From an uncultured virus (IMG/VR IMGVR_UViG_3300025009_000100) (lineage: Duplodnaviria; Heunggongvirae; Uroviricota; Caudoviricetes): 64,000 bases of DNA. The notes beneath the pieces were generated by a model, which worked only from the letters and a program-made list of their open reading frames with translations, had not been told where the DNA came from and searched no databases. The stretch lies in the IMG/VR virus record IMGVR_UViG_3300025009_000100; one strand, given 5' to 3'. Of this stretch, positions 42,819-58,306 are shown in pieces. A program made the translations under genes and the position numbers. Numbering within the stretch: the first letter of the stretch is position 1; each line of letters begins with the position of its first letter.

Positions 42819-44400
42819 AATAAAAAGGTACCACCGCAGAACTATCCCAAAGAACCAATGGCCAGATATTACCCAGTTAGTTAATTCTATTTCTGACAGG
42901 GATTTAAAGGCCCAGGAATGTCGGACATCTTTATTTGCATTCACCAAGAATTTCTGGGAAGAAGCAGGGATTCACGATAAACCGGTATGGAATTGGCATA
43001 TAGAGCAATTATGCTTAGAACTGGAAAAGATTGCGTACCGGGTGGCAGCAGAACATCCAAACGAATACGATATGGATGTGAATATCCCCCCAGGCACAAC
43101 CAAATCCCTTTTATTCACAGTTTTCTTCCCTGCATGGGTATGGACAAATTGGCCCTGGATGAAGTTTATTAAACTCTCTTATTCTGCCACATTGGCATTG
43201 GAGCATGCAGAAGTTGCCAGGGAAATACTCCGATCAGAGAAATACCAGTTATTGTTTACTGATATCAAAATAAAGAGAGATAAAGATCAGAAAAGTAATT
43301 TCCGTATCCAGTATTGGGATGAGAAAAGAGGTATATGGCGTTTAGGTGGTGCTTTATTTAGTACCAGTATCCGAGGTACAGTCACTGGGATGCATGCCCA
43401 TTTTATATTGGTGGATGATCCCCTGGACCCATTTAAATCTTTTTCTACAGTGGAATTAGAGGCCACAAATAAGTGGATTCAGAACGTCCTTCCTACGCGG
43501 AAGATAAATAAAGCTGTCACCCCTACAATAATGATTATGCAACGGACGCATCCAAATGATCCCAGCGGGCAGAATATTGCATTAAAGAAAAAGGGCCTGA
43601 AATTAAAAAGAATTGTATTGCCTGGTAAAATAGGGGCAAAAGATTCATCGGATAATACTCGTCAGCTTGTGAAGCCTAAAAGATTCCTGCAATACTATGA
43701 TACCAATAATGGGTATTTAGATCCTATAAGGCTGAATGAATCTGTCTTGCAGGAATTACAGCTAAAATTAGGGCAGTATGGGTACATGGCCCAGGTGGAG
43801 CAAAACCCGTCAGCCCCTGGAGGTGGTTTATTTAATACTGAGAACTTTGACCAGTACATCGATTCTAGCGTGTTAAATTGGGATTTGTATTTCCATAATC
43901 ATATTCGTTTTTGGGATAAAGCAGGGACAACAGACGGAGGTAAGTATACAGCAGGAGTAAAGATTTGTAAAATGGCGAATGATAAAAGCGGCACCCCCAG
44001 GTATTGCATTTTGGATGTAGTGAGGGGCCAATGGGCAGCAAATCAACGGGAAGCAGTGATCGAAACAGTGGCAGTAGAAGATGGCCCGGATACAATGCAA
44101 TGGATTGAGCAAGAACCCGGCTCCGGTGGAAAAGAATCAGCAGAAGCCACAGTTGAAAGATTAAGTAAAGTAAATATTATTTGCCAGGCGGAAAGGCCTG
44201 TGGGGGATAAGTTCTTTAGGGCAGACCCTTTCTCAGTTGCGTGGAACAGGGGGCAAGTTTATCTTGTAAAAGCAAAATGGAATAAACCATTTTTGGATGA
44301 GCTGGCAAACTTCTCCCCAAGTGCAACATATAAAGATCAAGTAGATGCAGCAGGAGCAGCATATAGCAAAGTACATAAAATAAATGGAGGGACGTGGTGA
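42808..44400 (+). CDS. terL: terminase large subunit
   Basis: NIPPGTTKS, LVDDP, IMQR, FWDKA, EQEPGSGGK, DQVDA. Confidence 0.93.
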   Translation: MPVKIKRYHRRTIPKNQWPDITQLVNSISDRDLKAQECRTSLFAFTKNFWEEAGIHDKPVWNWHIEQLCLELEKIAYRVAAEHPNEYDMDVNIPPGTTKSLLFTVFFPAWVWTNWPWMKFIKLSYSATLALEHAEVAREILRSEKYQLLFTDIKIKRDKDQKSNFRIQYWDEKRGIWRLGGALFSTSIRGTVTGMHAHFILVDDPLDPFKSFSTVELEATNKWIQNVLPTRKINKAVTPTIMIMQRTHPNDPSGQNIALKKKGLKLKRIVLPGKIGAKDSSDNTRQLVKPKRFLQYYDTNNGYLDPIRLNESVLQELQLKLGQYGYMAQVEQNPSAPGGGLFNTENFDQYIDSSVLNWDLYFHNHIRFWDKAGTTDGGKYTAGVKICKMANDKSGTPRYCILDVVRGQWAANQREAVIETVAVEDGPDTMQWIEQEPGSGGKESAEATVERLSKVNIICQAERPVGDKFFRADPFSVAWNRGQVYLVKAKWNKPFLDELANFSPSATYKDQVDAAGAAYSKVHKINGGTW

Positions 44401-44618
44401 TGAAAAAACCTTTACTTGGAATAAAGGAGGCGGTGATGGGCGCAAACAAAATCATAACAGGTGGGTGTGATAAATGTAGAAAAGGTAATTTTTGTAATAT
44501 TCACGTAGATAAATTAAAAATTAACAATTGCCCTATTTGTAAAGTTGCTAAGGTCCATCCGGGGTTGTGTTCTGATTGTTTTATAATGAAAAAGTTACTA
44601 TACAGGAGTTTAAAATAA
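44400..44618 (+). CDS. small Cys-rich hypothetical protein
   Basis: several CxxC motifs. Confidence 0.45.
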   Translation: MKKPLLGIKEAVMGANKIITGGCDKCRKGNFCNIHVDKLKINNCPICKVAKVHPGLCSDCFIMKKLLYRSLK

Positions 44619-44621
44619 TAA

Positions 44622-44927
44622 ATGCCGAAATTTAGCCCAATAAAATTAAGCGCAATAGAAAATAGACATGGGTTTTCTTTTACTTGCCCTGGGTGTAAAA
44701 CTGCGCATTTTATCCAGATAAACCCTGAATTTAGCCCATGTTGGATATTCAATGGTAACATAAATAAGCCATCGGTATCCCCAAGTATTTTGGTTCGTTC
44801 TGGGTATGTTGATCAAACGCCCACTACACGGTGCCACTCTTTTATTACGAATGGGCAAATCCAATTTCTTGGGGATTGTACCCATGCGCTGAAAGGGCAA
44901 ACGGTTGATTTACCAGATTGGGAATAA
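44622..44927 (+). CDS. DUF6527-like protein
   Basis: CPGC..H...WIFNG...PS.SPSI...CHSFITNGQI.F..DCTH.L.GQTV.LP. Confidence 0.7.
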   Translation: MPKFSPIKLSAIENRHGFSFTCPGCKTAHFIQINPEFSPCWIFNGNINKPSVSPSILVRSGYVDQTPTTRCHSFITNGQIQFLGDCTHALKGQTVDLPDWE

Positions 44928-44947: not shown

Positions 44948-45148
44948 ATGAAAAGAAAAGAGACTGAAAGTTTTGAAGAATACAAACAAAGACGAATAGA
45001 GGCCCGGTTGGTGCAGGAAACAATGCTTAATGGGGTATTTAAGTCAAAGGGAAATACCCAACCAGTATATGCCTCTGTCGAATATGCCAAACGGAAATAC
45101 CAAAGGCTGATGCAGAAGCTCAATAGAAGAAAAGGAGTGCCGGCATGA
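44948..45148 (+). CDS. small basic hypothetical protein
   Basis: AGGAGG RBS; ESFEEYKQRR. Confidence 0.55.
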   Translation: MKRKETESFEEYKQRRIEARLVQETMLNGVFKSKGNTQPVYASVEYAKRKYQRLMQKLNRRKGVPA

Positions 45149-47433
45149 AAGTAAACCGAAAGAATTTACCTGCCCCTGAACCTGACCCCCAGCAGCAGAT
45201 CCAGGTATTGCAGCAGCAATTAACAAATAATAGCATCCTTATGGCCCGGATGCAGTTCGCTTTTGAATTGGGGGTTACATTCGGAGGGGCCAGAAACCTT
45301 TACCAAGTCCTTGGGTACAAGAAACAACTTACTTTCCAGGATTATTACCTTCAGTACCAGCGGGAGGATTTGGGCAAAGTCGTCATTGATAAAGTAGTAA
45401 ATGGCTGCTGGGCGAATAAGCCCCAATTAAAAGACGAAACAGGCACGGATGAATCACCCTTTGAAAAGGAATACGATGCTTTTGCCAAGCAATTTAAGCT
45501 TTACAGCATCCTGAATCGCTTGGATAAACTCCTGGGTTTGGGGGATTATGCTGTGTTACTCCTGGGATTTGATGACAACCTGGACTTTTCCCAGCCGGTG
45601 CAGCCCAATGCACAAATCAAATATTTGCAGCCTTATTCCTGCAACTCAGCAACCATCACCTCATTTGAGAGTGATAAAACCTCCGAGAGATTTGGCAAGC
45701 CCGTGATGTACCAAATCCAGGTAAACCATGAAACGAGTTCTTTTGACAGGGAAAAGACATTAACGACAATCACCATCCAGTGTCATTATACTCGGTTGAT
45801 CCATGTTGTGGAAGACCCCCTGGAATCCAGTATATACGGAACCCCCAGAATGCAGTCGGTTTTTAATCGGTTACAGGACGTCCAGAAGATTCTGGGGGGA
45901 AGTGCTGAGTCTTATTGGAAAAACGTGTCTCCCGGGCGAGTAGCAAAGCTGGATAAAGACACAACTTTACTCCCGGGGGATAAAGAGGACTTAAAGACCC
46001 AATTTGATGAATACGATCACAACCTCAGGAGATGGCTGCGTGTCCGTGGAATGGATATTCAGGAATTATCCACCACAATTGCAGACCCTGAAAAAGCAAT
46101 GGAAGTGCAAATTAATGTGATCTCTGCTGCAACTGGCATTCCTAAAAGAATACTGATGGGGTCCGAGAGAGGGGAACTGGCTTCTTCACAGGATGAAAAG
46201 GCATGGAACTCACTATTATATAATAGGATGGTAAACTTCTGCGAGCCTTGCATCCTCCGACCTTTGGTGGATAGCCTCATTGAGCACAAAAGTATCCCAG
46301 ACCCAGTGGGAGGATATATTGTTGAGTGGCCGAAGATGTCTGCTTTGGGAGAAAAGGAAGTTGCAGAAATAGGCTCTTCAAAGATGGAAGCCATGAGTAA
46401 ATACTTGGCTGCTCCTGGTGGTACTGATATTCTGCCTTTGGAAATCTTCTTCCGGGATATTATTTCTTTACCGGAAGATACCGTAAAAGAAATTATGCTG
46501 AAGATTGAGGACGCAGGCGGGATTGAGGCATTGGAAGAAAAGATGAACCCGGAACCAGAAGAACTTGACCCTGATAAAGTTACTGACAATCTTTTATCCG
46601 TTTTGGGTGGGTCTGGCAGTGGTAACCATGGACATGCAGGAAGGCCAGGTAAGGTTGGAGGCAGCAGCATTGGAAGTAAAGGGAGTGGTAAATCTGCGGA
46701 CAAGCCGGCAGATAAGCAAGAGAAAAGCACTCTCTCCGGAGAGCAAACGAAACGGGTAAGCAGAACTACAAAATTGGATAAACCAACCATCACCGTAAAA
46801 CCCGTGGCGTCAAAACCACCCAAGCCAGAAAAGGACGTAAATCAATTTGTTGGTTTGTCTGTTAAACAAGGCACAAAAGACCCCAAAACAGCCAAAGCGT
46901 TAAACGAAATAAATTCGCATATGGAAGAGGTTTTATCCCGTAGGCCTGGGTTAAAAAATATATTGGATGATATGGGGCCACCGACTGAATTGGTATTAGA
47001 AAAAGGGACACATGTGAAATACACCAATTCAGAAGGGCAAAAAAGAACGACACTGGGACTATACCGGCCAAAAGAAGACACCTTGCATATCCCAATAGAA
47101 GGTGGTTCAAAAGACATTGCAAAGGCATTTGTTTTGGGTACTAAAGCATATACAGTCGGGGGGAATGGGGCAATGGCTACTGTCCGGCACGAATTTGGCC
47201 ACGCTGTTTTAGCAAAAAGCCCAGAGATAAAAACAGCTTTTATACTTCAGGTATGGAAAAATAATAATAACGGAAAAGTTGCATTTTCTGGGGTCAGCCG
47301 GTACGCAACGCTTAATGCATCAGAAGCTTTTGCTGAAGCCTTTTCTGCCTGGTCTTCTCCATACTATAATACTGGGAAAGGAACAACGTTACCTAAAAAT
47401 ATTGAACAGTGGTTTGATAATAATTTAAAATAG
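45145..47433 (+). CDS. portal protein (DUF1073-like) with C-terminal zincin-like extension
   Basis: portal motifs IHYTRLIH-like, ATGIPKRILMG; then Gly/His tag, linker, HEFGH and EAFAEAF. Confidence 0.85.
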   Translation: MKVNRKNLPAPEPDPQQQIQVLQQQLTNNSILMARMQFAFELGVTFGGARNLYQVLGYKKQLTFQDYYLQYQREDLGKVVIDKVVNGCWANKPQLKDETGTDESPFEKEYDAFAKQFKLYSILNRLDKLLGLGDYAVLLLGFDDNLDFSQPVQPNAQIKYLQPYSCNSATITSFESDKTSERFGKPVMYQIQVNHETSSFDREKTLTTITIQCHYTRLIHVVEDPLESSIYGTPRMQSVFNRLQDVQKILGGSAESYWKNVSPGRVAKLDKDTTLLPGDKEDLKTQFDEYDHNLRRWLRVRGMDIQELSTTIADPEKAMEVQINVISAATGIPKRILMGSERGELASSQDEKAWNSLLYNRMVNFCEPCILRPLVDSLIEHKSIPDPVGGYIVEWPKMSALGEKEVAEIGSSKMEAMSKYLAAPGGTDILPLEIFFRDIISLPEDTVKEIMLKIEDAGGIEALEEKMNPEPEELDPDKVTDNLLSVLGGSGSGNHGHAGRPGKVGGSSIGSKGSGKSADKPADKQEKSTLSGEQTKRVSRTTKLDKPTITVKPVASKPPKPEKDVNQFVGLSVKQGTKDPKTAKALNEINSHMEEVLSRRPGLKNILDDMGPPTELVLEKGTHVKYTNSEGQKRTTLGLYRPKEDTLHIPIEGGSKDIAKAFVLGTKAYTVGGNGAMATVRHEFGHAVLAKSPEIKTAFILQVWKNNNNGKVAFSGVSRYATLNASEAFAEAFSAWSSPYYNTGKGTTLPKNIEQWFDNNLK

Positions 47434-47458
47434 CACGTATAGCGTAGGGGGAAGCGAG

Positions 47459-47800
47459 ATGATACAAGAACCAAATTGTTTTAAAAGAGGTTGTATTCAT
47501 AATATCAGGGTAGAACAGCCGGATGGAACTGAAGAAACGGAAGTAAATGCATGTGATGCATACCCGGATGGAATACCAGAAGAAATTGCATACGGAGATG
47601 AATTGCATTTAGAAGTCCGGGATGACCAGGATAATGATATTGTGTTTGAGGAAGATACAGCATCAAAAAAAGTAATGGCCAACGAGACTAATGAAGAACT
47701 GTCCATACTCGGTGGCTCTGGCAGTGGACATTACGGGCATGCGGGGAGGCCTGGTAAGAGAGGTGGATCAGTAACAGGCGGAGGAGGAGGTACTCCCTGA
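47459..47800 (+). CDS. Cys/His small protein (CxxxxCxH...CDAYPDGIP...H) fused to a second Gly/His tag
   Basis: ORF track; ends at a TGA that is in frame with 47801..48244. Confidence 0.7.
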   Translation: MIQEPNCFKRGCIHNIRVEQPDGTEETEVNACDAYPDGIPEEIAYGDELHLEVRDDQDNDIVFEEDTASKKVMANETNEELSILGGSGSGHYGHAGRPGKRGGSVTGGGGGTP

Positions 47801-48244
47801 GTTGCAGAAAAAAATGGCAAGAAGGATTTCGATAACACCCAAGCAGTTATTAACGACATCCATAGTAGGGTTGACTCCAAGGATGGTTTGGTGTATGGTT
47901 TACGGGTTATCCCGGGAGAGGCTGGCTACACCCCAAAGATAGGTGATATTCAGCGCCCGTCAAAAAAATGGGTGAATGGGTATGAAACAGATATTGATTT
48001 GCTGGGAACCAGTGCCGCATTAGTAAAAAAGAATAAAATTGAGCAAGCTTTAAAAGATATTGGGGTGATAGCTGGCGGTCAAAATGGGTATTATTTTGGG
48101 GATACCGTTGTACTTATAAAAGGGAGAAAGGCCAAGTCAGGTGAAGATGTTGGGGAAATACTATTAAAATCTCCTGAGATTGTAGCTGTGTATAAAAAAC
48201 AATCTAAAGGTGAATCCAATATAACTAAGCGTGTATTACCATAA
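47801..48244 (+). CDS. in-frame continuation after TGA; possible ADP-ribosyltransferase-like domain
   Basis: open frame from 47801; YGLRV...GTSA...GEDVGE resembles an R-S-E pattern. Confidence 0.45.
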   Translation, partial: VAEKNGKKDFDNTQAVINDIHSRVDSKDGLVYGLRVIPGEAGYTPKIGDIQRPSKKWVNGYETDIDLLGTSAALVKKNKIEQALKDIGVIAGGQNGYYFGDTVVLIKGRKAKSGEDVGEILLKSPEIVAVYKKQSKGESNITKRVLP

Positions 48245-48262: not shown

Positions 48263-49231
48263 ATGTTAAGTCAATATCAGCCTCATGTGCATGCGCTGCC
48301 AATATTGCCCAAAATGCCCAGGATCTCAGTGAATGCAGCCTTCCGGAGAGACCCCACAAGGACTTTATCTCTCCGGAACCAATTCAGTGCCCAAATGAAA
48401 ATGCGGTTCAAGAAACTCAAGCAATTAATCCAGACAAGCGTATTGGACAATGATTGTTTTGGGCTGAATATTAACTGGGCACAGGGGCCTTATGATCCTT
48501 TTACCAGGAACCAAGCCCTCACTGATCAAATATTTGCCTTTGAAAGAAACCCAGCCAAAGTAACCAAATTTATGGAATGGCTGCAAGAGCAAATAGAGAA
48601 TGAAGTCCTGGAAACAATCCCTGGCCAGCAATTAGGGCAAGCGGTAGAAGCAGCATGGACAAATACTTATATCCAAACAGCATATCAAAAAGGGATGCTC
48701 CGGGGCCGGCAAGAACTCAAAGGTAATTCTATAACCGGGTACCAAGACATCCCACCGTATGGCTCGCAATATGGTTCTCTGCAGAAAGCGTTTAATTCTC
48801 CTTTCCACGCGGATAAGGTTGGATTAATATATACCCGAGCCTATGAGGGGTTAAAGGGCATTACCAATGAAATGAGTAAGCAGATTTCAGGGGTTTTAGC
48901 CCAGGGCATATCGGAAGGCTGGAACCCTAAAAAGATTGCAGAGAATCTAACAGACCGTGTTGATAAAATAGGGATTACCAGGGCAACTATATTGGCCAGG
49001 ACAGAAGTAATAAGGGCGCATCATGTTGCTATAGTACAGGAATACAAGAACTGGGGCGTCCAGGGTGTTATTGTTCAGGCAGAATGGACAACCGCAGGAG
49101 ACAGCCGGGTATGTCCTATTTGTTCTTCCTTGCAAGGAAAGGTTTATACTTTAGAACAAATTGAGCCACTAATTCCTCGGCACCCGCAGTGCAGGTGTCT
49201 TGCGTTGCCTGTGGATGTTACGGATAAATAA
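48263..49231 (+). CDS. MuF/SPP1 gp7-like minor head protein
   Basis: RDPTRT, LARTEVIRAH, WTTAGDSRVCPIC, IPRHPQCRC. Confidence 0.9.
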   Translation: MLSQYQPHVHALPILPKMPRISVNAAFRRDPTRTLSLRNQFSAQMKMRFKKLKQLIQTSVLDNDCFGLNINWAQGPYDPFTRNQALTDQIFAFERNPAKVTKFMEWLQEQIENEVLETIPGQQLGQAVEAAWTNTYIQTAYQKGMLRGRQELKGNSITGYQDIPPYGSQYGSLQKAFNSPFHADKVGLIYTRAYEGLKGITNEMSKQISGVLAQGISEGWNPKKIAENLTDRVDKIGITRATILARTEVIRAHHVAIVQEYKNWGVQGVIVQAEWTTAGDSRVCPICSSLQGKVYTLEQIEPLIPRHPQCRCLALPVDVTDK

Positions 49232-49432: not shown

Positions 49433-50986
49433 GTGAATCTACCCAATTTACAAAGTATCTTAACTCAAAATCAGCAAGTTCAGTCCAGGCAGGAAACATT
49501 GGATAATATTATTTATTCGGTGTTTCCTGTAGTCATGTTGACAGAAGGCGTCCATGCTGGTTCCGGTGGCCCTGTTCTTTACACTGCGCAAACCCTTGCC
49601 AATTTCCACCAAACCTGGAATGGCACCCCTGTTACATTAAAACACCCTGATCTCAATGGCACCCCTGTCAGCGCAAACCAGCCTGAAATCTATAAAACCC
49701 AAGTTGTCGGTACCGTATTTAATACCACCTTCCAAGACAATAAACTGAAAGCGGAACTTTGGTTGAACGAGCAGAAATTGGAAATGCTTGCTCCTGGACT
49801 ATTAAATGGACTCCGGGTTGGGATGAAGCTGGATGTGAGCACAGGCCTATTTGATGAAGGGCCGAAAGTTACTGGGAATTTTAACGGACAGGATTATGTG
49901 GCGGTTGCTCACAATATCCGACCCGATCATTTGGCCCTTTTACCAGGGGAAACTGGGGCTTGTTCCTGGAAAGATGGGTGTGGCGTGAGAGCCAATATAG
50001 CGAATACCGAGAATAAAGAAGGAAAGGAGGTGAAACCAAAAATGAGAAGAAGAAAACCCCCGGTGGTTAATTCTACCGGTATCGATGAGAACACTGAATT
50101 CATCAAACAGGAAGAAGCCCTTATCCCCCTTGCCTTCACCATCAATTTCGGAGAAGAATTAATCCATCCTTCTGAGAACAAAGCGAAAGACCCCCAATCG
50201 TACCAAGGGATTATGGACGCTTTACGTGCAGCCCTTTATCCTAATGATATTAATGGTGAAGTATACCATTATATAAGGGCAGCGTATCCGGATTACATCG
50301 TGTATGAGAGGGAATCTAAATTCACTGGCACAAAGCTTTTCAAAAAAGAATACAAAATGATGGATGGTAAGGTGGAATGGACTTCCGAGCCAGTTGAGGT
50401 TCAGCAGGAAATTACGTACAAAGAAATTCAAACCAATGTAACAGCAAACGAAATAAATAACAAGAAGAACGAGGAGAACGAAATGAAGACAATGCGTGAA
50501 TGTTGCCCGGCAAAGGTCGATGAGCTGATCAAGGCCAATGCCAAATTCCAGGAAACGGACAAAGAGATGCTCCTGAATATGTCAGAAGATGCTTTTGCCC
50601 GTGTTATTGACCTGTCCGCCCCCACTGTTGTGGAAAAGGAAGTGGTCAAGGTCGTTGAAAAAGAAGTCAAGGTCAATGCAGAATCCAAAACCTTTGATGA
50701 ACTGCTGGCAAATGCAGACCCCAAGCTTCAGGAATCCATCCAGCACGGACAGCGTCTTGTTGCCCAGGAAAGAGAAAACCTGGTTTCCCGGATCAAAACC
50801 AATAAGGCCAATTCCTTCAGCGATGATGAATTGAAGGCTTTCAGCCTGGATATGCTTGGTAAACTCGCTGCCATGGTTCCCGCGCCCGTAAATTGGGCCG
50901 GCAACGGCGGTGCCCGGCAGGTTATCAATTCCGAAGGGGTTGAACCCCTCCCTGAACTGGAAGACGCCTGGAAAGACGCAAAATAA
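49433..50986 (+). CDS. prohead protease/scaffold (DUF2213-like)
   Basis: PVTLKHP, VSTG, PDHLALL...GACS...GCG; helical C-terminal scaffold. Confidence 0.8.
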   Translation: MNLPNLQSILTQNQQVQSRQETLDNIIYSVFPVVMLTEGVHAGSGGPVLYTAQTLANFHQTWNGTPVTLKHPDLNGTPVSANQPEIYKTQVVGTVFNTTFQDNKLKAELWLNEQKLEMLAPGLLNGLRVGMKLDVSTGLFDEGPKVTGNFNGQDYVAVAHNIRPDHLALLPGETGACSWKDGCGVRANIANTENKEGKEVKPKMRRRKPPVVNSTGIDENTEFIKQEEALIPLAFTINFGEELIHPSENKAKDPQSYQGIMDALRAALYPNDINGEVYHYIRAAYPDYIVYERESKFTGTKLFKKEYKMMDGKVEWTSEPVEVQQEITYKEIQTNVTANEINNKKNEENEMKTMRECCPAKVDELIKANAKFQETDKEMLLNMSEDAFARVIDLSAPTVVEKEVVKVVEKEVKVNAESKTFDELLANADPKLQESIQHGQRLVAQERENLVSRIKTNKANSFSDDELKAFSLDMLGKLAAMVPAPVNWAGNGGARQVINSEGVEPLPELEDAWKDAK

Positions 50987-51611: not shown

Positions 51612-52676
51612 ATGGAAGCGAATACCACTTTTGTTGATCCTCAGAGCGGAAGATTTTCTGATTCAGAAGTCGGAAGCATGTTGGGGACATCGTTTAACGT
51701 GAATGCCATGCGCCCGTATTGGCACAAAGGCCATGTATATATTAACCAGAAAGGCTTTGACGGCAAAATGAAAGCGGTAAAGGTAACCGCTAATGCTGCC
51801 CTGCTCAGAGACGAATGGATAGAAATTGATAAAGTTGTCCAGAAGGTTTCCCGTGAGCGCCTTGTTGGTGCTGCTGATCTTCTCGGCCGGGGCCTCACAT
51901 ACAATCTGACCAATCCCATGGGTAAGACCGTGTTTGAATACCAGGATATGGATGACCCCGGTGAAGCAGCAATGAGCATGGACGGGGCAACTCAGGGTAA
52001 AGGCGACCGGCCTGATTTCCAGACCAAATACCTGCCCATCCCCATTATTCATTCTGATTTCACCATCGGGCAGAGGGCACTGGAAGCCAGCAGAAACTCA
52101 GGTGATGCCCTTGATACGACCATTGTTGAAGCACACACCCGCAGAGTAACGGAAAAACTGGAAGACCTCCTGTTCACCAATACCACTTATGCGTTCGGGG
52201 GCGGAACCATTTATTCCTATCTGTCCTTCACTTCCAAGAATGAAGTGACCCTTTCCGCAAATTGGGATGCTGCTGGTAAAACCGGCGCACTCATTCTGGC
52301 TGATGTTTTGAACATGATCGAAGCATCCATTACAGCAAAGCATTATGGCCCCTGGGTTCTTTATATTCCTACGGCATATCAGACAAAGATGTCGGAAGAC
52401 TATGCAACCGGGTACCCCAAGTCCATTATGCAGCGTTTGATGGAGATTGAAGGTCTTACTGCTATTAAGGTTGCCGACAGACTCACTGCGAACAAAGTTA
52501 TTTTGGCGCAGATGACATCGGACACCGTTCGTTTGATTAATGGGTTCAGCCCCAAAGTCATTCAGTGGTCCAGTCAGGGCGGCATGATCCATCATTTTAA
52601 GGTTATGGCCATCCAGGTGCCCCAGATGAGAGCAGACCAGGCAGGGAATAGCGGTATCACAGTCCTTTCCGCATAG
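51612..52676 (+). CDS. major capsid protein (encapsulin/Linocin-M18-like HK97 fold)
   Basis: EW.EID..V....R.RL; PIPIIHSDF.I..R.LEAS; GPWVLY. Confidence 0.85.
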   Translation: MEANTTFVDPQSGRFSDSEVGSMLGTSFNVNAMRPYWHKGHVYINQKGFDGKMKAVKVTANAALLRDEWIEIDKVVQKVSRERLVGAADLLGRGLTYNLTNPMGKTVFEYQDMDDPGEAAMSMDGATQGKGDRPDFQTKYLPIPIIHSDFTIGQRALEASRNSGDALDTTIVEAHTRRVTEKLEDLLFTNTTYAFGGGTIYSYLSFTSKNEVTLSANWDAAGKTGALILADVLNMIEASITAKHYGPWVLYIPTAYQTKMSEDYATGYPKSIMQRLMEIEGLTAIKVADRLTANKVILAQMTSDTVRLINGFSPKVIQWSSQGGMIHHFKVMAIQVPQMRADQAGNSGITVLSA

Positions 52677-52762: not shown

Positions 52763-53257
52763 ATGATAAAAAGCACACAGAAACCCGGAGATAATCAAAC
52801 ACCCGGCCGTAAAGTTAAAATTGCAAAACCGGCACCCAAGCCCGTGCCTGAAAGAAAAAAACTTCGGTATAAGAAAGTGACCGGCGGCATTTTCTTTTCT
52901 GCCACAAAGCAACCTGTCCGTAAAAATGAGATCTTCCTCGCTTACCCAGAAGAAATCCCAGCAGGGTTTGCTTCCAGTTTTATTTGCTTGGATGAAATTA
53001 CAGCCTCGGCAGACCCCGGTATTAAAGTAGGGCTGGCACCTGCCGGCAAGAACTGCTGGAATGTAATTAATATCCTGACCGGCGATATCCTTAACGACTC
53101 CCCATTGGATGCCACATCCGCAAAAGCTTTTTTGGAAGAAGGCCAATCCCTTCCAACTGGCCCTGAGCCCCTGGAACCACCTGAGAAGAAATCCACGGAA
53201 ACCAAAGGCAAAGAGCCTGAGGAAAAGGAAGATGACGAGGAGGAATACGACGACTGA
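52763..53257 (+). CDS. hypothetical protein following the capsid gene
   Basis: GAGG RBS; WNVIN..TG..LN..PL motif; acidic tail. Confidence 0.6.
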   Translation: MIKSTQKPGDNQTPGRKVKIAKPAPKPVPERKKLRYKKVTGGIFFSATKQPVRKNEIFLAYPEEIPAGFASSFICLDEITASADPGIKVGLAPAGKNCWNVINILTGDILNDSPLDATSAKAFLEEGQSLPTGPEPLEPPEKKSTETKGKEPEEKEDDEEEYDD

Positions 53258-54018
53258 TGCTTTGGTCTATCCCACAAATATGGTCTGGCTATTGTTGGAT
53301 ATTGGGCGGAGGGGTTTCCGTAGCTGATCAATTTGGTGTGCCTGAAACCCTTATTCCTACAACCCGGGAAGAATACTATGAATTCGGTTCTTACTTGGAG
53401 CCAATTATGCGTGATCATGTCATTGGGGTAAACGTAGGTGCTTTCGTTTCTGATGCAATACCGGTGGCATTTTTTGGTGATTCCGACACGTATAGTGACT
53501 TCCGGAGTTGGTATGATGATTTTGGAGGGATTAAAGTTTCTGGGGCCGGTAAGTTCGTCGAGCCCATGTTTACTTCCATTTATCACGTGTACAAGAGCCA
53601 TAAACACGGCATTACCAGGAAACCGAATGAAGTGTCCTGGGTTGCTTACAATTCCGCTTGTGGTGCCATCAGTTTAGCATACCATTTGGGGTGCAGGGAA
53701 ATATTTCTTTTGGGGATTGACCTTAAAGAAACCAGAGGCCGGGTTCATTGGCATTCTGGGTACCCGGATAAGGGTAAAACCCCCACAATAAAACACCTGC
53801 ACAAAGGTATCCCCACAAAAGAAAGCCCAGTGCCTTTTAAAATCCATATGCAGAATTATCATTTTATCGCCAGTGATGCTGAAAAGCTCGGGGTTAAAAT
53901 CTGGAATGTATCGCCTGATTCTGCTTTGGATTGTTTTGAAAAGATAGATTTAAAGACCGCTTTAAAGAAAGCCTTGACTCTAACCAAGAAAGCAAGGAGC
54001 AATAATGTTAACAGATAG
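53257..54018 (+). CDS. MptE/Maf/sialyltransferase-like Rossmann enzyme
   Basis: ILGGG.S, VIGVN, NS...AISLAYHLG.REIFLLGID, IWNVSP.SAL..FEK. Confidence 0.6.
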   Translation: MLWSIPQIWSGYCWILGGGVSVADQFGVPETLIPTTREEYYEFGSYLEPIMRDHVIGVNVGAFVSDAIPVAFFGDSDTYSDFRSWYDDFGGIKVSGAGKFVEPMFTSIYHVYKSHKHGITRKPNEVSWVAYNSACGAISLAYHLGCREIFLLGIDLKETRGRVHWHSGYPDKGKTPTIKHLHKGIPTKESPVPFKIHMQNYHFIASDAEKLGVKIWNVSPDSALDCFEKIDLKTALKKALTLTKKARSNNVNR

Positions 54019-54748
54019 TCTGACCATAAATACCAAGACGCAGATTTTATGTGTGTATAAGACCGGGGGGCCTTACACGGATGAATATGTTTTGCGTCTT
54101 TTGGAAGGAGTACAACGGTATTCTACTGAAAATATTTCCTTCCTTTGCCTGACTGATGATGAAGCGTTTATTTCCAAAAAAGTATGTAAGACCAAAAAAC
54201 TGAAACACGGTTGGCCGGGTTGGTGGTCCAAGATTGAGTTATTTCGGCAGGACTTGCCCAAAATTCCTTCTGTTTATTTTGACCTTGACACCATCATAAA
54301 AGGCAATATCGACGCACTTACCCAGCAAGCTCATTCTCATTCTTTTATTGTATTGAGGGGGTTCAGCAATAAGTTCAGGAAGCCTGGAAGCCTGAATTTT
54401 GCCAGCGGGATTATGGCAGGTTCTTTCTGGGAGTATTCGCCCGTGTATGAGTTATTCCTTGAAGACCCTGAAAGATTTATGACCATCAAACAAGAAAATT
54501 GGATGCACGGAGACCAGGGTTTTATTGCTTCCGTAATAGGGGTTGATAACGTCCCCAGACTGCAAGAGCACCTCCAGGAAAACTACATTGTCGGTAAAAG
54601 AATTATCCATCTGGCCAATAAGATCCCGGATGAAGCTTCTGTGATTGCTTGGTCTGGTGAACCCAGGCTGCATGAATTAAACAATGGGAACGATATCATT
54701 CACCAGGAATTATCGTCACTTTGGAATGGGTATAGGTGGCACAAATGA
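54005..54748 (+). CDS. GT-A glycosyltransferase (GT8-like)
   Basis: GWWSKIELF, YFDLD, SGIM, GDQGFI. Confidence 0.8.
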   Translation: MLTDSLTINTKTQILCVYKTGGPYTDEYVLRLLEGVQRYSTENISFLCLTDDEAFISKKVCKTKKLKHGWPGWWSKIELFRQDLPKIPSVYFDLDTIIKGNIDALTQQAHSHSFIVLRGFSNKFRKPGSLNFASGIMAGSFWEYSPVYELFLEDPERFMTIKQENWMHGDQGFIASVIGVDNVPRLQEHLQENYIVGKRIIHLANKIPDEASVIAWSGEPRLHELNNGNDIIHQELSSLWNGYRWHK

Positions 54749-55719
54749 ATCCAGTTGATAAAGTAGTTTCATATTCATCTGCGAACACTCTCCCAGGGAA
54801 ATTGCTTAGAATTGCCAGGACTTGTTTGACGTATGATTTATTTATCAAACCAATTCATTTTCAATTGTGCCCAACAAATGCATGTAATTTGAATTGTGCT
54901 TTTTGTTCTTGTTCCGCCAGGGAGAAATCGCAACAGCTTTCTTTAAAACAGGTGCAAAATCTTTCAGATATCTTTTATTCTTTGGGTTCAGCGGCTGTGA
55001 CAATAACTGGGGGTGGGGAACCTTGCTGTCATCCGAATCTACCTGAGATAATCCGTTGTTTAAGCGGTGCCCGGTTTAAATTAGGGCTTGTCACTAACGG
55101 ATATCTCATTGAAAGGATTTTAAAGGAAATTTCACTCCTGACTTGGTGCCGGGTGAGTGTATCTGATGACAGGGATTTAGACAAACTCTTTTCCATTTTA
55201 TTTCCTTTGGTCACAGAGAATAAAATTGATTGGGCATTCAGTTATGTCGTCACCAGGAATTTTAAAATTCAGAAGTTTGCCAAGGCAGTCCAGTTTGCAA
55301 ACGATCATGGATTCACCCACGTGAGGGCCGTGAGCGATCTCCTTGACCTTGATCGGGTTCCATCGCCGGTTTTTATCCGGGAATTAATGAAAGAATACGG
55401 AGTGGATGATTCTATCGTCATTTACCAATCCCGGCAGGAATACAGCATGGGAACGAGTAAATGTAAGATCAGTTTACTGAAGCCTGTGATTGCTCCTGAT
55501 GGATTTGTTTACCCTTGTTGTGGTGTTCAGTATGCTTTGCCTGAAACACAGGGCGTTTTCCCGGAAGAAATGCGGATGTGTCATATTGAGGATATTCCTA
55601 CTTATTTTGCTTCTCAGAAAGTTTATGAGGGTTCCAGTTGCTATAGATGCTATTACCAAGAGTATAATACGGCTTTGGATTGCATGACAACCGAATACGA
55701 CCATTTGGAGTTTGTGTGA
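54736..55719 (+). CDS. radical SAM/SPASM-type enzyme
   Basis: CNLNCAFC, TGGGEP, TNG, DGFVYPCC, CYRC. Confidence 0.88.
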   Translation: MAQMNPVDKVVSYSSANTLPGKLLRIARTCLTYDLFIKPIHFQLCPTNACNLNCAFCSCSAREKSQQLSLKQVQNLSDIFYSLGSAAVTITGGGEPCCHPNLPEIIRCLSGARFKLGLVTNGYLIERILKEISLLTWCRVSVSDDRDLDKLFSILFPLVTENKIDWAFSYVVTRNFKIQKFAKAVQFANDHGFTHVRAVSDLLDLDRVPSPVFIRELMKEYGVDDSIVIYQSRQEYSMGTSKCKISLLKPVIAPDGFVYPCCGVQYALPETQGVFPEEMRMCHIEDIPTYFASQKVYEGSSCYRCYYQEYNTALDCMTTEYDHLEFV

Positions 55720-56387
55720 TGATTTCCTTTATCCTTTCATATAAAGCGGCGGATCAATTCAGGGAAGAAAACATCAAATTTGTTTTGAAACGGATAGAAG
55801 CTTTACCGATTGAAAAACAAATTATTGTGGTAGAGCAGGGCGTAAAACAAACTTTTTTTAAAGAAGGTATTGAGGTTATCTTTGTTAACGATCCAGGGCT
55901 ATTTTACAAATCCTTTTTGTATAATTTGGGTGCCCTGAACGCTAAGTATGCCATTCTGTTTTTCCATGATATTGACCTGGTGGTATCAGAAGATGTTTAC
56001 TTAACCACCATCAAAGATATCCAGGAAAATGATGTGGTTGATCCCTATGGGAAGGTTGTCTATGTAGGAAATATACCCAGCGCGGTAATCCTCGCGGGAT
56101 TTGATGTAATTGTCAAAAACCCTATCAAAATCCAAGATTCTTCAGTAATTTCTGGTGGATGTTTTTGCATTAAAAAGGATGTTTTTATTCAGGTGGGTGG
56201 ATTTCCGGAACAATGTATCGGTTATGGTCATGAGGACACCGTTTTTGATATTAAGCTGAAAATACATAAATGTAAAATAAAACGCAATTTATCTTATTCC
56301 GTTATCCATTTATGGCATACCCCTCAGTTGGATGAAAAAAGGAATCTTCCTATTTTTAAGGCGTATAAAAGAAAATGCAAAGCATAA
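55719..56387 (+). CDS. GT2/GT7-like glycosyltransferase
   Basis: IVVEQ, YNLGA, FHDID, GGFPE..IGYGHED, HLWH. Confidence 0.85.
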   Translation: MISFILSYKAADQFREENIKFVLKRIEALPIEKQIIVVEQGVKQTFFKEGIEVIFVNDPGLFYKSFLYNLGALNAKYAILFFHDIDLVVSEDVYLTTIKDIQENDVVDPYGKVVYVGNIPSAVILAGFDVIVKNPIKIQDSSVISGGCFCIKKDVFIQVGGFPEQCIGYGHEDTVFDIKLKIHKCKIKRNLSYSVIHLWHTPQLDEKRNLPIFKAYKRKCKA

Positions 56388-57130
56388 AATATACTTTTTT
56401 ATTTCCTTATTTGGATAGGATTCCCCAAACCAGGGCCACTTTAGTTTCTTTGGTTACTTTTTATGGGACCAGGGAAGATGTAGAAATCTTATTTATTCTG
56501 GATCAAAAACAAACCCTGGTGATGACCAGGGAATTATTGAACTTGGTTGATGCTTTTCATGCTTTCTTTAAAATACGACTTATACCTTGTAGTGCAAAGA
56601 TTGCGTATGATCCGGCAACCGCTTATAATGATGGAGCCAAAGAAGCGAGAGGAGACTTTCTTATTCTAAGCAGCCCTGAATGTCAGCACGATGTGGATAT
56701 TTTAAAAGGGCTGGATGCAGAATTTCAAAAGAACATGGGAGCGTATGTGATCTGTTCTTGCAAAGCAACCAATCCTGATGGCTCTTTTAGACGATGGTAT
56801 CAACATAGTATCCACGGAAACCGGGCTTTGAATTTTTGCACTGCTTTATCCCGGGAGAACTTTAATTTGGTAAAGGGTTTTAACGAGGAATACACCATTG
56901 GCTATGGGTATGATGATGACTCATTCCGAGATAGGGTTTTTTACTCAAATATCCCTTTTGTATTTCGGGATGATCTTCAAGTTACGCATCAATGGCACGA
57001 GAAGCCCCGGCCCAATAATTTTTCACAGTTATTTACTCGAAATAAGATTATTTACTCCAAAGAACGTTTAGATCAAGTAATGGATAAGGAATTGCCCTTT
57101 TTATCTACCAAGATCGCAAGGACTTTATAA
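56375..57130 (+). CDS. GT2/GT7-like glycosyltransferase
   Basis: YNDGAKEARGD, GFNEEY..GYGYDDD, HQWH. Confidence 0.8.
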   Translation: MQSIKYTFLFPYLDRIPQTRATLVSLVTFYGTREDVEILFILDQKQTLVMTRELLNLVDAFHAFFKIRLIPCSAKIAYDPATAYNDGAKEARGDFLILSSPECQHDVDILKGLDAEFQKNMGAYVICSCKATNPDGSFRRWYQHSIHGNRALNFCTALSRENFNLVKGFNEEYTIGYGYDDDSFRDRVFYSNIPFVFRDDLQVTHQWHEKPRPNNFSQLFTRNKIIYSKERLDQVMDKELPFLSTKIARTL

Positions 57131-57197
57131 TGCTAAAAAGAAACAGCGATTTGTTTGCCAAAGAGCGTAAAGAATTCACCAATGTGAGGACAGTCGC

Positions 57198-57593
57198 ATG
57201 AATCAAGTTATTTTAATAACAGGGAAAGCTGGTGCGGGTAAAACTACATTGGCAACTTCTTTGGCAAAAAATATTGATGCTGTGCTGTTAGACAGTGACG
57301 CTATCCGGGCAATTTATCCCACAGGATTTTCTGACCAAGATCGAGAACAGCATTTATTCAGGATGGCAAGTCTTGCAGCACTTATCCGGGAGCAAGGTAA
57401 TAATGTTATCATAGCAGCAATAATGCCGAAAAAATCATGGCGGCAAATGATGCTTGAAAAAGTCCCTGGGGCAGCATTAATTCATATCCCGGGTGGAACA
57501 TTGTGGCCTGGTACAGAATATGAGGAACCGGGTGAGGACGAAAACCCTTTATCTTTATATCAAATGAAGAATTTGAGGAATTTAGTATGCTAA
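57198..57593 (+). CDS. cysC: adenylyl-sulfate (APS) kinase-like protein, compact
   Basis: ITGKAGAGKTT, LDSD.IR, GFS.QDR, YEEP. Confidence 0.75.
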   Translation: MNQVILITGKAGAGKTTLATSLAKNIDAVLLDSDAIRAIYPTGFSDQDREQHLFRMASLAALIREQGNNVIIAAIMPKKSWRQMMLEKVPGAALIHIPGGTLWPGTEYEEPGEDENPLSLYQMKNLRNLVC

Positions 57594-58306
57594 AAGACTA
57601 TTCCAGTAAACCAATCTTAATCACTGGTGCGGCTCGTTCTGGAACTTCTATGGTTGCTGCTTGTTTCCACCTGTGTGGCGCTTGGAAAGGTGATACCGGA
57701 GGCCCGTCTGCATACAATGAGAAGGGGATGTTTGAGAACCTTCCTTTGCGGCAAGAGATTGTAAAGCCTTTGTTTAGGGATTTAGGATATGATCCTCTGG
57801 GCCAATTTCCATTGCCTCCTACAAATAAAGTGAAGATCCCGTTTGATTTACGGCAGAGGGTTTTGGCCAATATTACAAAACAAGGATGGACCCCGGAAAC
57901 CATTTGGATGTACAAATGTGCAAAGATGTCTTTGTTATGGCCTGTTTGGGCTTTTGCCTTTCCTGAAAGCAAATGGATCATCGTTCGCAGGAGAAAAGAG
58001 GATATCATATTCTCATGCATGCAAACTGCTTTTATGCGGAGTTTTAACCAGCCACATATTCTGCGCAGAATGGGGTTTAAACAACCGGAAGAAGGATGGA
58101 ATTACTGGGTAGAATTTCACGAAAATAAATTTAATGAGATTATCAATCAAGGGATCAATACCAAAGTAATTTGGCCCGAAAAGATGGTCAAAGCAGATTA
58201 TTCTGAATTGAAAGATGCCATTGAATGGGCAGGATTGCAGTGGAATGGCCAAGCAGTTATGGAATTTATTGAGCCACGGCTTTGGCGTGCCAGGAGGAAC
58301 AAATGA
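57587..58306 (+). CDS. sulfotransferase
   Basis: ITGAARSGTS 5'-PSB loop; IIVRR....I.S 3'-PB motif. Confidence 0.85.
   Translation: MLKDYSSKPILITGAARSGTSMVAACFHLCGAWKGDTGGPSAYNEKGMFENLPLRQEIVKPLFRDLGYDPLGQFPLPPTNKVKIPFDLRQRVLANITKQGWTPETIWMYKCAKMSLLWPVWAFAFPESKWIIVRRRKEDIIFSCMQTAFMRSFNQPHILRRMGFKQPEEGWNYWVEFHENKFNEIINQGINTKVIWPEKMVKADYSELKDAIEWAGLQWNGQAVMEFIEPRLWRARRNK

Follow-up and report, generated by a model that had tools for sequence, protein, structure and literature searches.

In phage T4, the internal proteins IPI to IPIII and Alt are known to carry capsid-targeting sequences that are removed by the prohead protease gp21 (PMC9026906, PMC5694885). Polyvalent proteins and effector domains fused to portal or MuF proteins are likewise known and are predicted to be injected (PMC5512222, PMC9503650), and MuF polymorphic toxins are known to be accompanied by small downstream immunity genes (PMC5576092, PMC11699363, PMC3482391), all as given in the accessible parts of these papers. 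Here we describe a glycine-rich peptide tag of 20 residues, with the consensus GGxGSGxxGHxGRPGxxGGS, that occurs in the head module of an uncultured virus (IMG/VR record IMGVR_UViG_3300025009_000100), of which a stretch of 64,000 nucleotides, hereafter called the window, was analysed. The source record has 64,389 bases, and its sequence is present in groundwater sequencing runs, with no RNA run listed among those containing the window sequence. A preliminary description made from the window had proposed that this tag is a packaging, cleavage or ejection signal and a swap point for effectors. The reading that we favour, with moderate confidence, is that each tag begins an exchangeable cargo unit, which the phage's own protease cuts free in the head. 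Such a unit would consist of a carrier or leader, a protease site, the tag, a Gly/Ser linker and an enzyme, in that order. The cargo would be brought into the prohead by a portal fusion or a short leader, the prohead protease would cut at or just before the tag, and the freed cargo would probably be injected with the DNA, keeping the tag as its new N-terminus.

The tag is not confined to the window. A degenerate pattern matched 195 IMG/VR stretches in 18 of the 64 parts of that collection and about 470 in all; these matches gave 236 tags in 113 contigs, the set used for residue statistics. Wider, partial regions were taken for 54 tag-bearing records, picked for length and to span all residue classes, which together with the window make 55 genomes with 216 tags in 151 proteins. 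There are up to 13 tags per genome, and 43 of the 151 tagged proteins have two to five. A renewed search matched 49 of 49 records, all of them chosen for holding the tag, and a reversed-pattern control gave 0 matches. Across 48 non-redundant multi-tag contigs (5 of 53 were dropped as redundant), the residue immediately before the tag (position −1) agrees within a contig in 239 of 260 pairs (0.92), against a shuffled mean of 0.20 and maximum of 0.30, and it is uniform in 39 of the 48. In the same contigs agreement falls to 0.20 at −2 and 0.33 at −3, and variable positions inside the tag agree in 0.51 to 0.80 of pairs, so that copying of the tag alone cannot explain the agreement at −1. A wider, overlapping set of 39 genomes (the duplicate G042 was dropped) also gave 0.92, over 597 pairs; with each genome weighted once, the value was 0.89 versus 0.22 after shuffling. 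Half of the pairs that agree at −1 use different codons there.

Across genomes, the −1 residue goes with the lineage of the prohead protease. A protease could be placed in 34 of the 55 genomes, and the residue closing its catalytic domain, read by eye, is the same as the tag −1 residue in 30 of the 34, the others being one partial match, one unreadable case and two mismatches. Canonical DUF2213 proteases close with Asp in 12 of 12 genomes, with Asp before their tags. The pairing is Lys with Lys in five genomes with S78-like proteases (G025 is unreadable, and G046, with Arg before its tag, is a mismatch), Arg with Arg in three genomes with an unnamed protease clade, Leu with Leu in two with Mu I proteases and Glu with Glu in two, one with an S77 protease and the other G054. 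Divergent DUF2213 proteases close with R-x-A in six genomes with Ala or Leu before the tags, and in an Asn-type DUF2213 subclade the tags follow His and Asn in G050 and Leu and Leu in the window. Capsid-protein N-termini show the same residues. G052, which has a T4-like portal, an S77 protease and gp23, has L-x-E before four of four tags, and T4 gp21 cuts after L/I-X-E (PMC9026906, in the part available); HK97-type heads mostly have Lys before their tags, and HK97 is cut at K103/S104 (PMC10275583, likewise in part). By sequence and by eye, the residue at the border of leader and cargo agrees with the protease in 30 of 34 genomes, and in the window the match is displaced by 6 to 10 residues. 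Cutting at this border gains indirect support from these matches; the cleavage signal itself would be the genome-specific residue before the tag and not the tag, as had been proposed.

The order of the window's head module, by Pfam and PHROGs, is small terminase, large terminase, portal, MuF, DUF2213-type protease-scaffold, decoration protein and capsid protein. The 64,389-base genome has two tag copies only. Both peptides of the preliminary description, at 46594-46665 and 47699-47770, are present, with 20-residue cores at 46606-46665 and 47711-47770, and, as it had read, the portal is extended into the tag, a Lys/Ser linker and a zincin-like domain. The portal open reading frame (ORF; 45145-47433) encodes 762 aa, with PF06381 spanning residues 70-418 and the tag, linker and zincin lying beyond the portal domain; an untagged portal homologue ends at 482 aa. 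The next ORF (47459-47800) encodes the Cys/His protein, a linker and tag 2, and is followed after its TGA by 147 further open codons. The features are as follows.

45145..46590, + strand: portal body (Phage_portal_3) and acidic linker A; PF06381 at residues 70-418 (E 3e-30), phrog_146, 91% DNA identity to the relative L289.
46579..46590, + strand: VTDN, a predicted site of the head protease, with its Asn 6 residues upstream of tag 1; V-x-[AD]-N pattern as at the protease border, in the scaffold and in the capsid protein, kept in L289.
46606..46665, + strand: tag 1, GGSGSGNHGHAGRPGKVGGS, recombination junction; flanks match two different L289 tags (36/45 upstream, 45/45 downstream).
46666..46869, + strand: Lys/Ser/Pro-rich linker, from the sequence.
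46870..47433, + strand: zincin metallopeptidase domain as cargo, with HEFGH at 47188, a Tyr and EAFAE at 47323; 18 homologues, lethal-factor profile match at E 9e-12.
47459..47656, + strand: Cys/His protein (C7, C12, C32, H50), which probably binds Zn and partners the zincin; from 34 homologues (62-83 aa), invariant residues and gene neighbourhood.
47657..47710, + strand: linker B (VMAN-ETN-EELSIL), an in-frame extension of the Cys/His gene, with Asn sites predicted 10 and 7 residues upstream of tag 2.
47711..47770, + strand: tag 2, GGSGSGHYGHAGRPGKRGGS, from the sequence.
47798..47800, + strand: in-frame TGA between tag 2 and its cargo, probably a nonsense change; also in two other assemblies, TGA ends 25 of 79 long ORFs.
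47801..48244, + strand: cargo with a probable ADP-ribosyltransferase (ART) fold (R35, GTS 69-71, GEDxGE 114-119), from the polyvalent-protein pool; 184 homologues, model pLDDT (predicted local distance difference test) 90.7.
48263..49231, + strand: MuF, short form, 322 aa; PF04233.
49433..50986, + strand: divergent DUF2213 prohead protease-scaffold; PF09979 and head maturation protease PHROGs.
49985-49996, + strand, within the preceding gene: VRAN closing the protease catalytic domain, from the sequence.
50438-50449, + strand: VTAN in the scaffold part of the protease-scaffold, from the sequence.
51612..52676, + strand: major capsid protein; Pfam and PHROGs.
51783-51794, + strand: VTAN, predicted capsid maturation site; FRAL stands at the corresponding position in the Leu-type relative G036, by eye.

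Over 24 codons the two tags have 9 identical codons, 11 synonymous differences and 4 residue changes, with 48 of 72 bases identical, in keeping with the earlier observation that they are conserved as a peptide. Pfam and PHROGs have no family for the tag or for the Cys/His ORF of the window.

Both tags of the window follow Leu, as in most of its closest portal relatives, while its protease catalytic domain ends in GCGVRAN and its capsid protein has VTAN versus FRAL in a Leu-type relative. Asn sites (VTDN and VMAN-ETN) lie 6 to 10 residues upstream of the tags, and of all V-x-[AD]-N matches, 7 fall within the 2,186 residues of the head module, both pre-tag linkers included, and 4 within the other 18,793. 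We infer that the window cassettes are of Leu-type origin and would now be cut at Asn sites 6 to 10 residues earlier. We regard it as probable that the prohead protease cuts at or just before the tag, in the window after the Asn of VTDN and of VMAN/ETN and not after Leu.

Several points weigh against the reading of a protease-released cargo unit. The window itself breaks the −1 rule, with Leu before both tags and an Asn-type protease; G046 mismatches, G050 matches at one of its two tags, and G025 is unreadable. The protease borders were read by eye with the tag residue known beforehand, the 34 genomes amount to about eight lineages and are not independent points, and 21 of the 55 genomes were not scored for the match. 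The proteases of G003, G005, G044, G032 and G054 have no Pfam name and were placed by motif and position, and the V-x-[AD]-N motif was defined after the sites were seen. Some tagged genes lie far from the head module (G024, G027, G048 and G049). In G048 (16741 and 62194) and G049 (8412 and 36493), we observed tagged genes far apart on both strands, near recombinase or RNA-ligase genes.

That the tag is a swap point is borne out by L289, whose portal is 94% identical to that of the window. L289 has the order portal, VTDN linker, tag, GNAT-like domain (below the Pfam cut-off), VTAN linker, tag and zincin, followed by a 67-aa Cys/His protein with its own stop; run X5 has the same layout and was not counted as independent. 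The 45 bases upstream of window tag 1 match the flank of L289 tag 1 at 36 of 45 positions and the 45 bases downstream match the flank of L289 tag 2 at 45 of 45, so that window tag 1 appears as a crossover between the two tags of L289. These flanks indicate that a crossover within the tag changed the cargo between the two phages. Linker B is homologous to the linker before the second L289 tag (81% over 105 bases) and leads to a different cargo, and the Cys/His gene, fused in frame to linker B in the window, stops instead in L289. The C-terminal domains therefore vary between these close relatives, with one conflict domain on the portal of the window (zincin) and two on that of L289 (GNAT-like and zincin). 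The MuF of the window is, as described before, a short form ending at 322 aa and carries no C-terminal toxin domain. This is not a fixed trait, since the L289 MuF has 628 aa with an ART-like tail and is followed by a 112-aa ORF; the tail and this ORF would form a pair like those of MuF toxins and their immunity proteins, which the window lacks. In this pair (L289 6461-8730), the tail of the MuF measures 318 aa and shows 33% identity to a protein whose DRAT match is weak.

The motif search and domain catalogue suggested earlier were run and agree with polymorphic cargo, as the 212 segments behind tags fall into 122 groups, of which 99 are singletons without a relative in the set, and many of the domains are unrelated. 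Among 132 tagged proteins compared with Pfam, many without a match and some with domains that precede the tag, the carriers are portals, MuF, DUF2213 protease and ChaB. The ART domains are of the VIP2-type, PARP, ART-PolyVal and DRAT-like kinds; other domains are zeta-toxin kinase, 2H, Nudix, GNAT, papain-fold deamidase, Ntox50, RelA/SpoT, topoisomerase IB and the ATLF zincin.

As the same tag is found on unrelated heads (T4-like, HK97-like, Mu-like and DUF2213), with short leaders that are genome-specific, we assign it a role that follows cutting, with ejection the likeliest; the proposed packaging signal is the weaker candidate. That the tag itself, once the cut is made, would serve as an unfolded leader and help the cargo to leave the head is a guess, to be held tentatively. 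A universal post-cleavage leader, in which one 20-residue N-terminal peptide and a few interchangeable alternatives would route protease-released enzymes out of the capsid across unrelated heads, with −1 as the protease readout and the tag DNA as the payload crossover point, in bacterial and perhaps archaeal hosts, seems rather doubtful. It is improbable that the tag is instead a loading address that binds scaffold, capsid, portal or other tags during prohead assembly, the cut merely trimming the leader. Such an address would suit the 89 of 216 tags that lie at most 80 residues from the ORF start with no structural carrier in front, and the near invariance of His, Arg and Pro (positions fixed by the search pattern) would suit a binding motif; however, the heads in question have unrelated scaffolds, and within a given genome the leaders ahead of the cut are alike (by eye), as are T4 capsid-targeting propeptides in the accessible part of PMC9026906. 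Further, a rough local search of 38 genomes with a portal in view found no tag on portal, MuF or DUF2213 protease in 17, and tag-to-tag recruitment is therefore not required.

A recombination handle would account for the crossover inside the tag, for the copies that are identical in DNA within some genomes and for the shortened GGPGSGP form, which follows the same residues. The tag would then only make the site cleavable, as a flexible or prime-side segment, and spread as a 60-base unit with no role after cutting. Synonymous sites, however, have largely diverged (the same codon in 0.27 to 0.67 of agreeing pairs), a sign that the tag peptide is under selection; known prohead proteases need short upstream motifs only, as far as PMC9026906 covers them in its available part; and the window tag is intact although it is likely cut 6 to 10 residues away, so that we give this handle little credence. 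Polyvalent-protein metallopeptidase (MPTase) domains have been proposed to act by autoproteolytic release (PMC5512222, part available), and the window zincin is fused behind a tag, yet a zincin is present in the fetched regions of 11 of the 55 genomes and the −1 residue follows the prohead-protease lineage. That the zincin is the processing enzyme that cuts polyproteins at the tag is thus very unlikely.

If the tag does start protease-released cargo, then the zincin of the window would be such a cargo. Its HEFGH starts at 47188 and its EAFAEAF at 47323; the His, Glu and His and two downstream Glu are invariant in 18 homologues, and the domain keeps HEXXH, the Tyr and the Glu on a second helix. 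It matches the lethal-factor catalytic domain profile (E 9e-12), in which it is similar to the MPTases of polyvalent proteins (PMC5512222), and, weakly, Pro-Pro endopeptidase, with Pfam ATLF below the cut-off (E 0.014); no zincin homologues were found among shorter proteins. The Cys/His protein belongs to a family whose members normally have 55-83 aa and keep three Cys and one His invariant; 34 homologues measure 62-83 aa. Its gene follows a zincin in 9 of 10 non-self loci (about five distinct groups) and an ART-like ending in one. It also stands just before a zincin-bearing gene in G001, G034 and G040, and the same zincin and Cys/His pair occurs on MuF in the cultured Flavobacterium phage lotta8-1 (gp28/gp29). 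Against this pairing, the gene immediately ahead of the Cys/His gene does not encode a zincin in L204, G001, G034 and G040. The Cys/His model has no PDB match at Z ≥2, the ESM Atlas gave unnamed clusters alone, and relatives of the protein match the unnamed phrog_33375. From gene neighbourhood, the partnership with the zincin that had been proposed is likely. It is fairly probable that the freed zincin is a host-delivered anti-host or anti-defence enzyme, which the Cys/His protein would restrain in the producing cell.

The domain with an R/S/E pattern noted earlier past the TGA is present and has 184 homologues, several of them inside LPD38, ART-PolyVal, InPase, portal or MuF proteins, so that its source is the polyvalent pool in a head-module context. 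R35 and E119 are conserved at ≥90% in the family, with a GTS consensus, and the window keeps all four invariant columns. For the model (pLDDT 90.7), the best structural matches are mostly ART folds and weak (Z 5.5, root-mean-square deviation 3.0, 88 aligned); Foldseek found no PDB match at E 0.001 or better, Pfam had none, and the ESM Atlas gave leads under 0.9 only. The domain probably has an ADP-ribosyltransferase fold, judging from the model and the conserved residues. Among 150 listed homologues, 0 have this tag, and 8 have other tags by pattern.

Two further assemblies of this DNA also carry the TGA at 47798, as does a contig with a depth of 288, all possibly from the same source as the window; a single assembly error is thus unlikely, although the sources may not be independent. 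Recoding was rejected, since TGA ends 25 of 79 long ORFs and code 4 raises coverage only from 0.909 to 0.941. With TGA a normal stop here, cassette 2 (Cys/His, linker, tag and ART) is probably dead, inactivated by this codon. The architecture is viable, as G045 has an intact fusion of Cys/His, linker, tag and cargo, and this, together with the four retained columns and an AAGGA 4-7 bases before an in-frame TTG/GTG, would fit an ART-like domain that is still made, by low-level readthrough or from a new start codon at 47888/47891, which would yield an untagged core in the cytoplasm. We regard continued production as unlikely, given that TGA is a regular stop in this genome, that the N-terminal helix (model residues 6-23) would be missing after a start at 47888 and that L289 has no cassette 2. 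A stop almost immediately after a tag, as with window tag 2, was also seen in G002 (tag at 47950) and L346.

Unrelated short leaders, of the types HPR..G.F, PRVPAG..GGQW, AHV..YT and WIT[VI].G.H, fill the same slot before cargo (proteins P0017, P0028, P0064, P0068, P0110, P0118, P0123, P0139, P0027, P0044 and P0146; genomes G007, G014, G015, G029 and G041). These leaders and the GGPGSGP form lie, by eye, 1-4 residues behind the genome's own residue. Beyond viral records, a loose pattern in GTDB gave 97 matching frames, of which 56 hold the full tag (overlapping loci are counted twice). Their labels are Clostridia, Dehalococcoidia, Omnitrophota, Elusimicrobiales, Azospirillum and four archaeal groups, mostly metagenome-assembled genomes (MAGs) and possibly mis-binned virus contigs. 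The other 41 frames (Streptomyces and other GC-rich genomes) were rejected as chance frames in GC-rich DNA. Full tags in archaeal-labelled MAG contigs are those of L310, L318, L336 and L350 (Methanotrichaceae, Methanomicrobiales, Bathyarchaeia and Methanomassiliicoccales); L318 and L336 have the same tag context. The tag was not found in cultured phages, by a weak search with a short query and a low-complexity filter. A literature search by motif or concept found no description of it, though supplements, including the external files of PMC5512222, could hold the motif.

GRP is the core of AT-hook-like DNA-binding motifs. We doubt such a role for the GRP of the tag because Glu is common at tag positions 11 (46 of 233) and 16 (97 of 233).

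Elsewhere in the window, the gap between terminase and portal (44394-44927) holds a 74-aa Cys-rich ORF and a DUF6527 gene that are absent from the near-identical L289, and this gene pair is a second slot of variable content within the head module. The capsid genes are directly followed (53257-58306) by genes that, by eye, resemble those for glycosyltransferases, a radical-SAM protein, a kinase and a sulfotransferase and may serve to modify the capsid or the DNA.

If this reading is right, one short motif lists enzymes carried in the phage head, for the most part from unknown families (99 of 212 segments have no relative in the set), and candidates for anti-defence and host-takeover proteins can be drawn from it directly. 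The −1 residue would also predict the cutting rules of head proteases (Asp, Ala/Leu or Asn for DUF2213; Leu for Mu I); to our knowledge, no cutting specificity has been measured for the DUF2213 and Mu I enzymes. The question of how cleaved internal proteins are chosen for ejection would become testable, and a portable leader could serve for loading proteins into phage heads.

Compared with the described systems, the arrangement resembles that of T4, where a short propeptide ending in a head-protease motif precedes unrelated internal proteins that are trimmed and ejected; here a predicted protease site precedes unrelated cargo domains, and one member of the tag family is itself T4-like, with L-x-E before its tags. 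In T4, as far as the accessible sources go, the conserved part is the propeptide that is removed, whereas here it is a 20-residue segment after the predicted cut, common to unrelated heads, and the tag recurs inside polyproteins and portal fusions. With polyvalent proteins the system shares a pool of domains on portal or MuF (zincin MPTase, ARTs, GNAT, 2H, Nudix and RelA/SpoT), but the available parts of their descriptions mention no recurring tag at the junctions, and they invoke autoprocessing by MPTases where the present system would use prohead-protease sites matched to the lineage (PMC5512222, PMC9503650). With MuF toxins, as presented in their own sources (PMC5576092, PMC11699363, PMC3482391), it has in common a head-module carrier, a variable C-terminal enzyme and a small downstream ORF; here, in contrast, the carrier is the portal, the MuF is short, and the cassettes are delimited by tags and can be chained. 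To these systems the present analysis adds a protease-matching rule across lineages, displaced Asn sites and a crossover within the tag.

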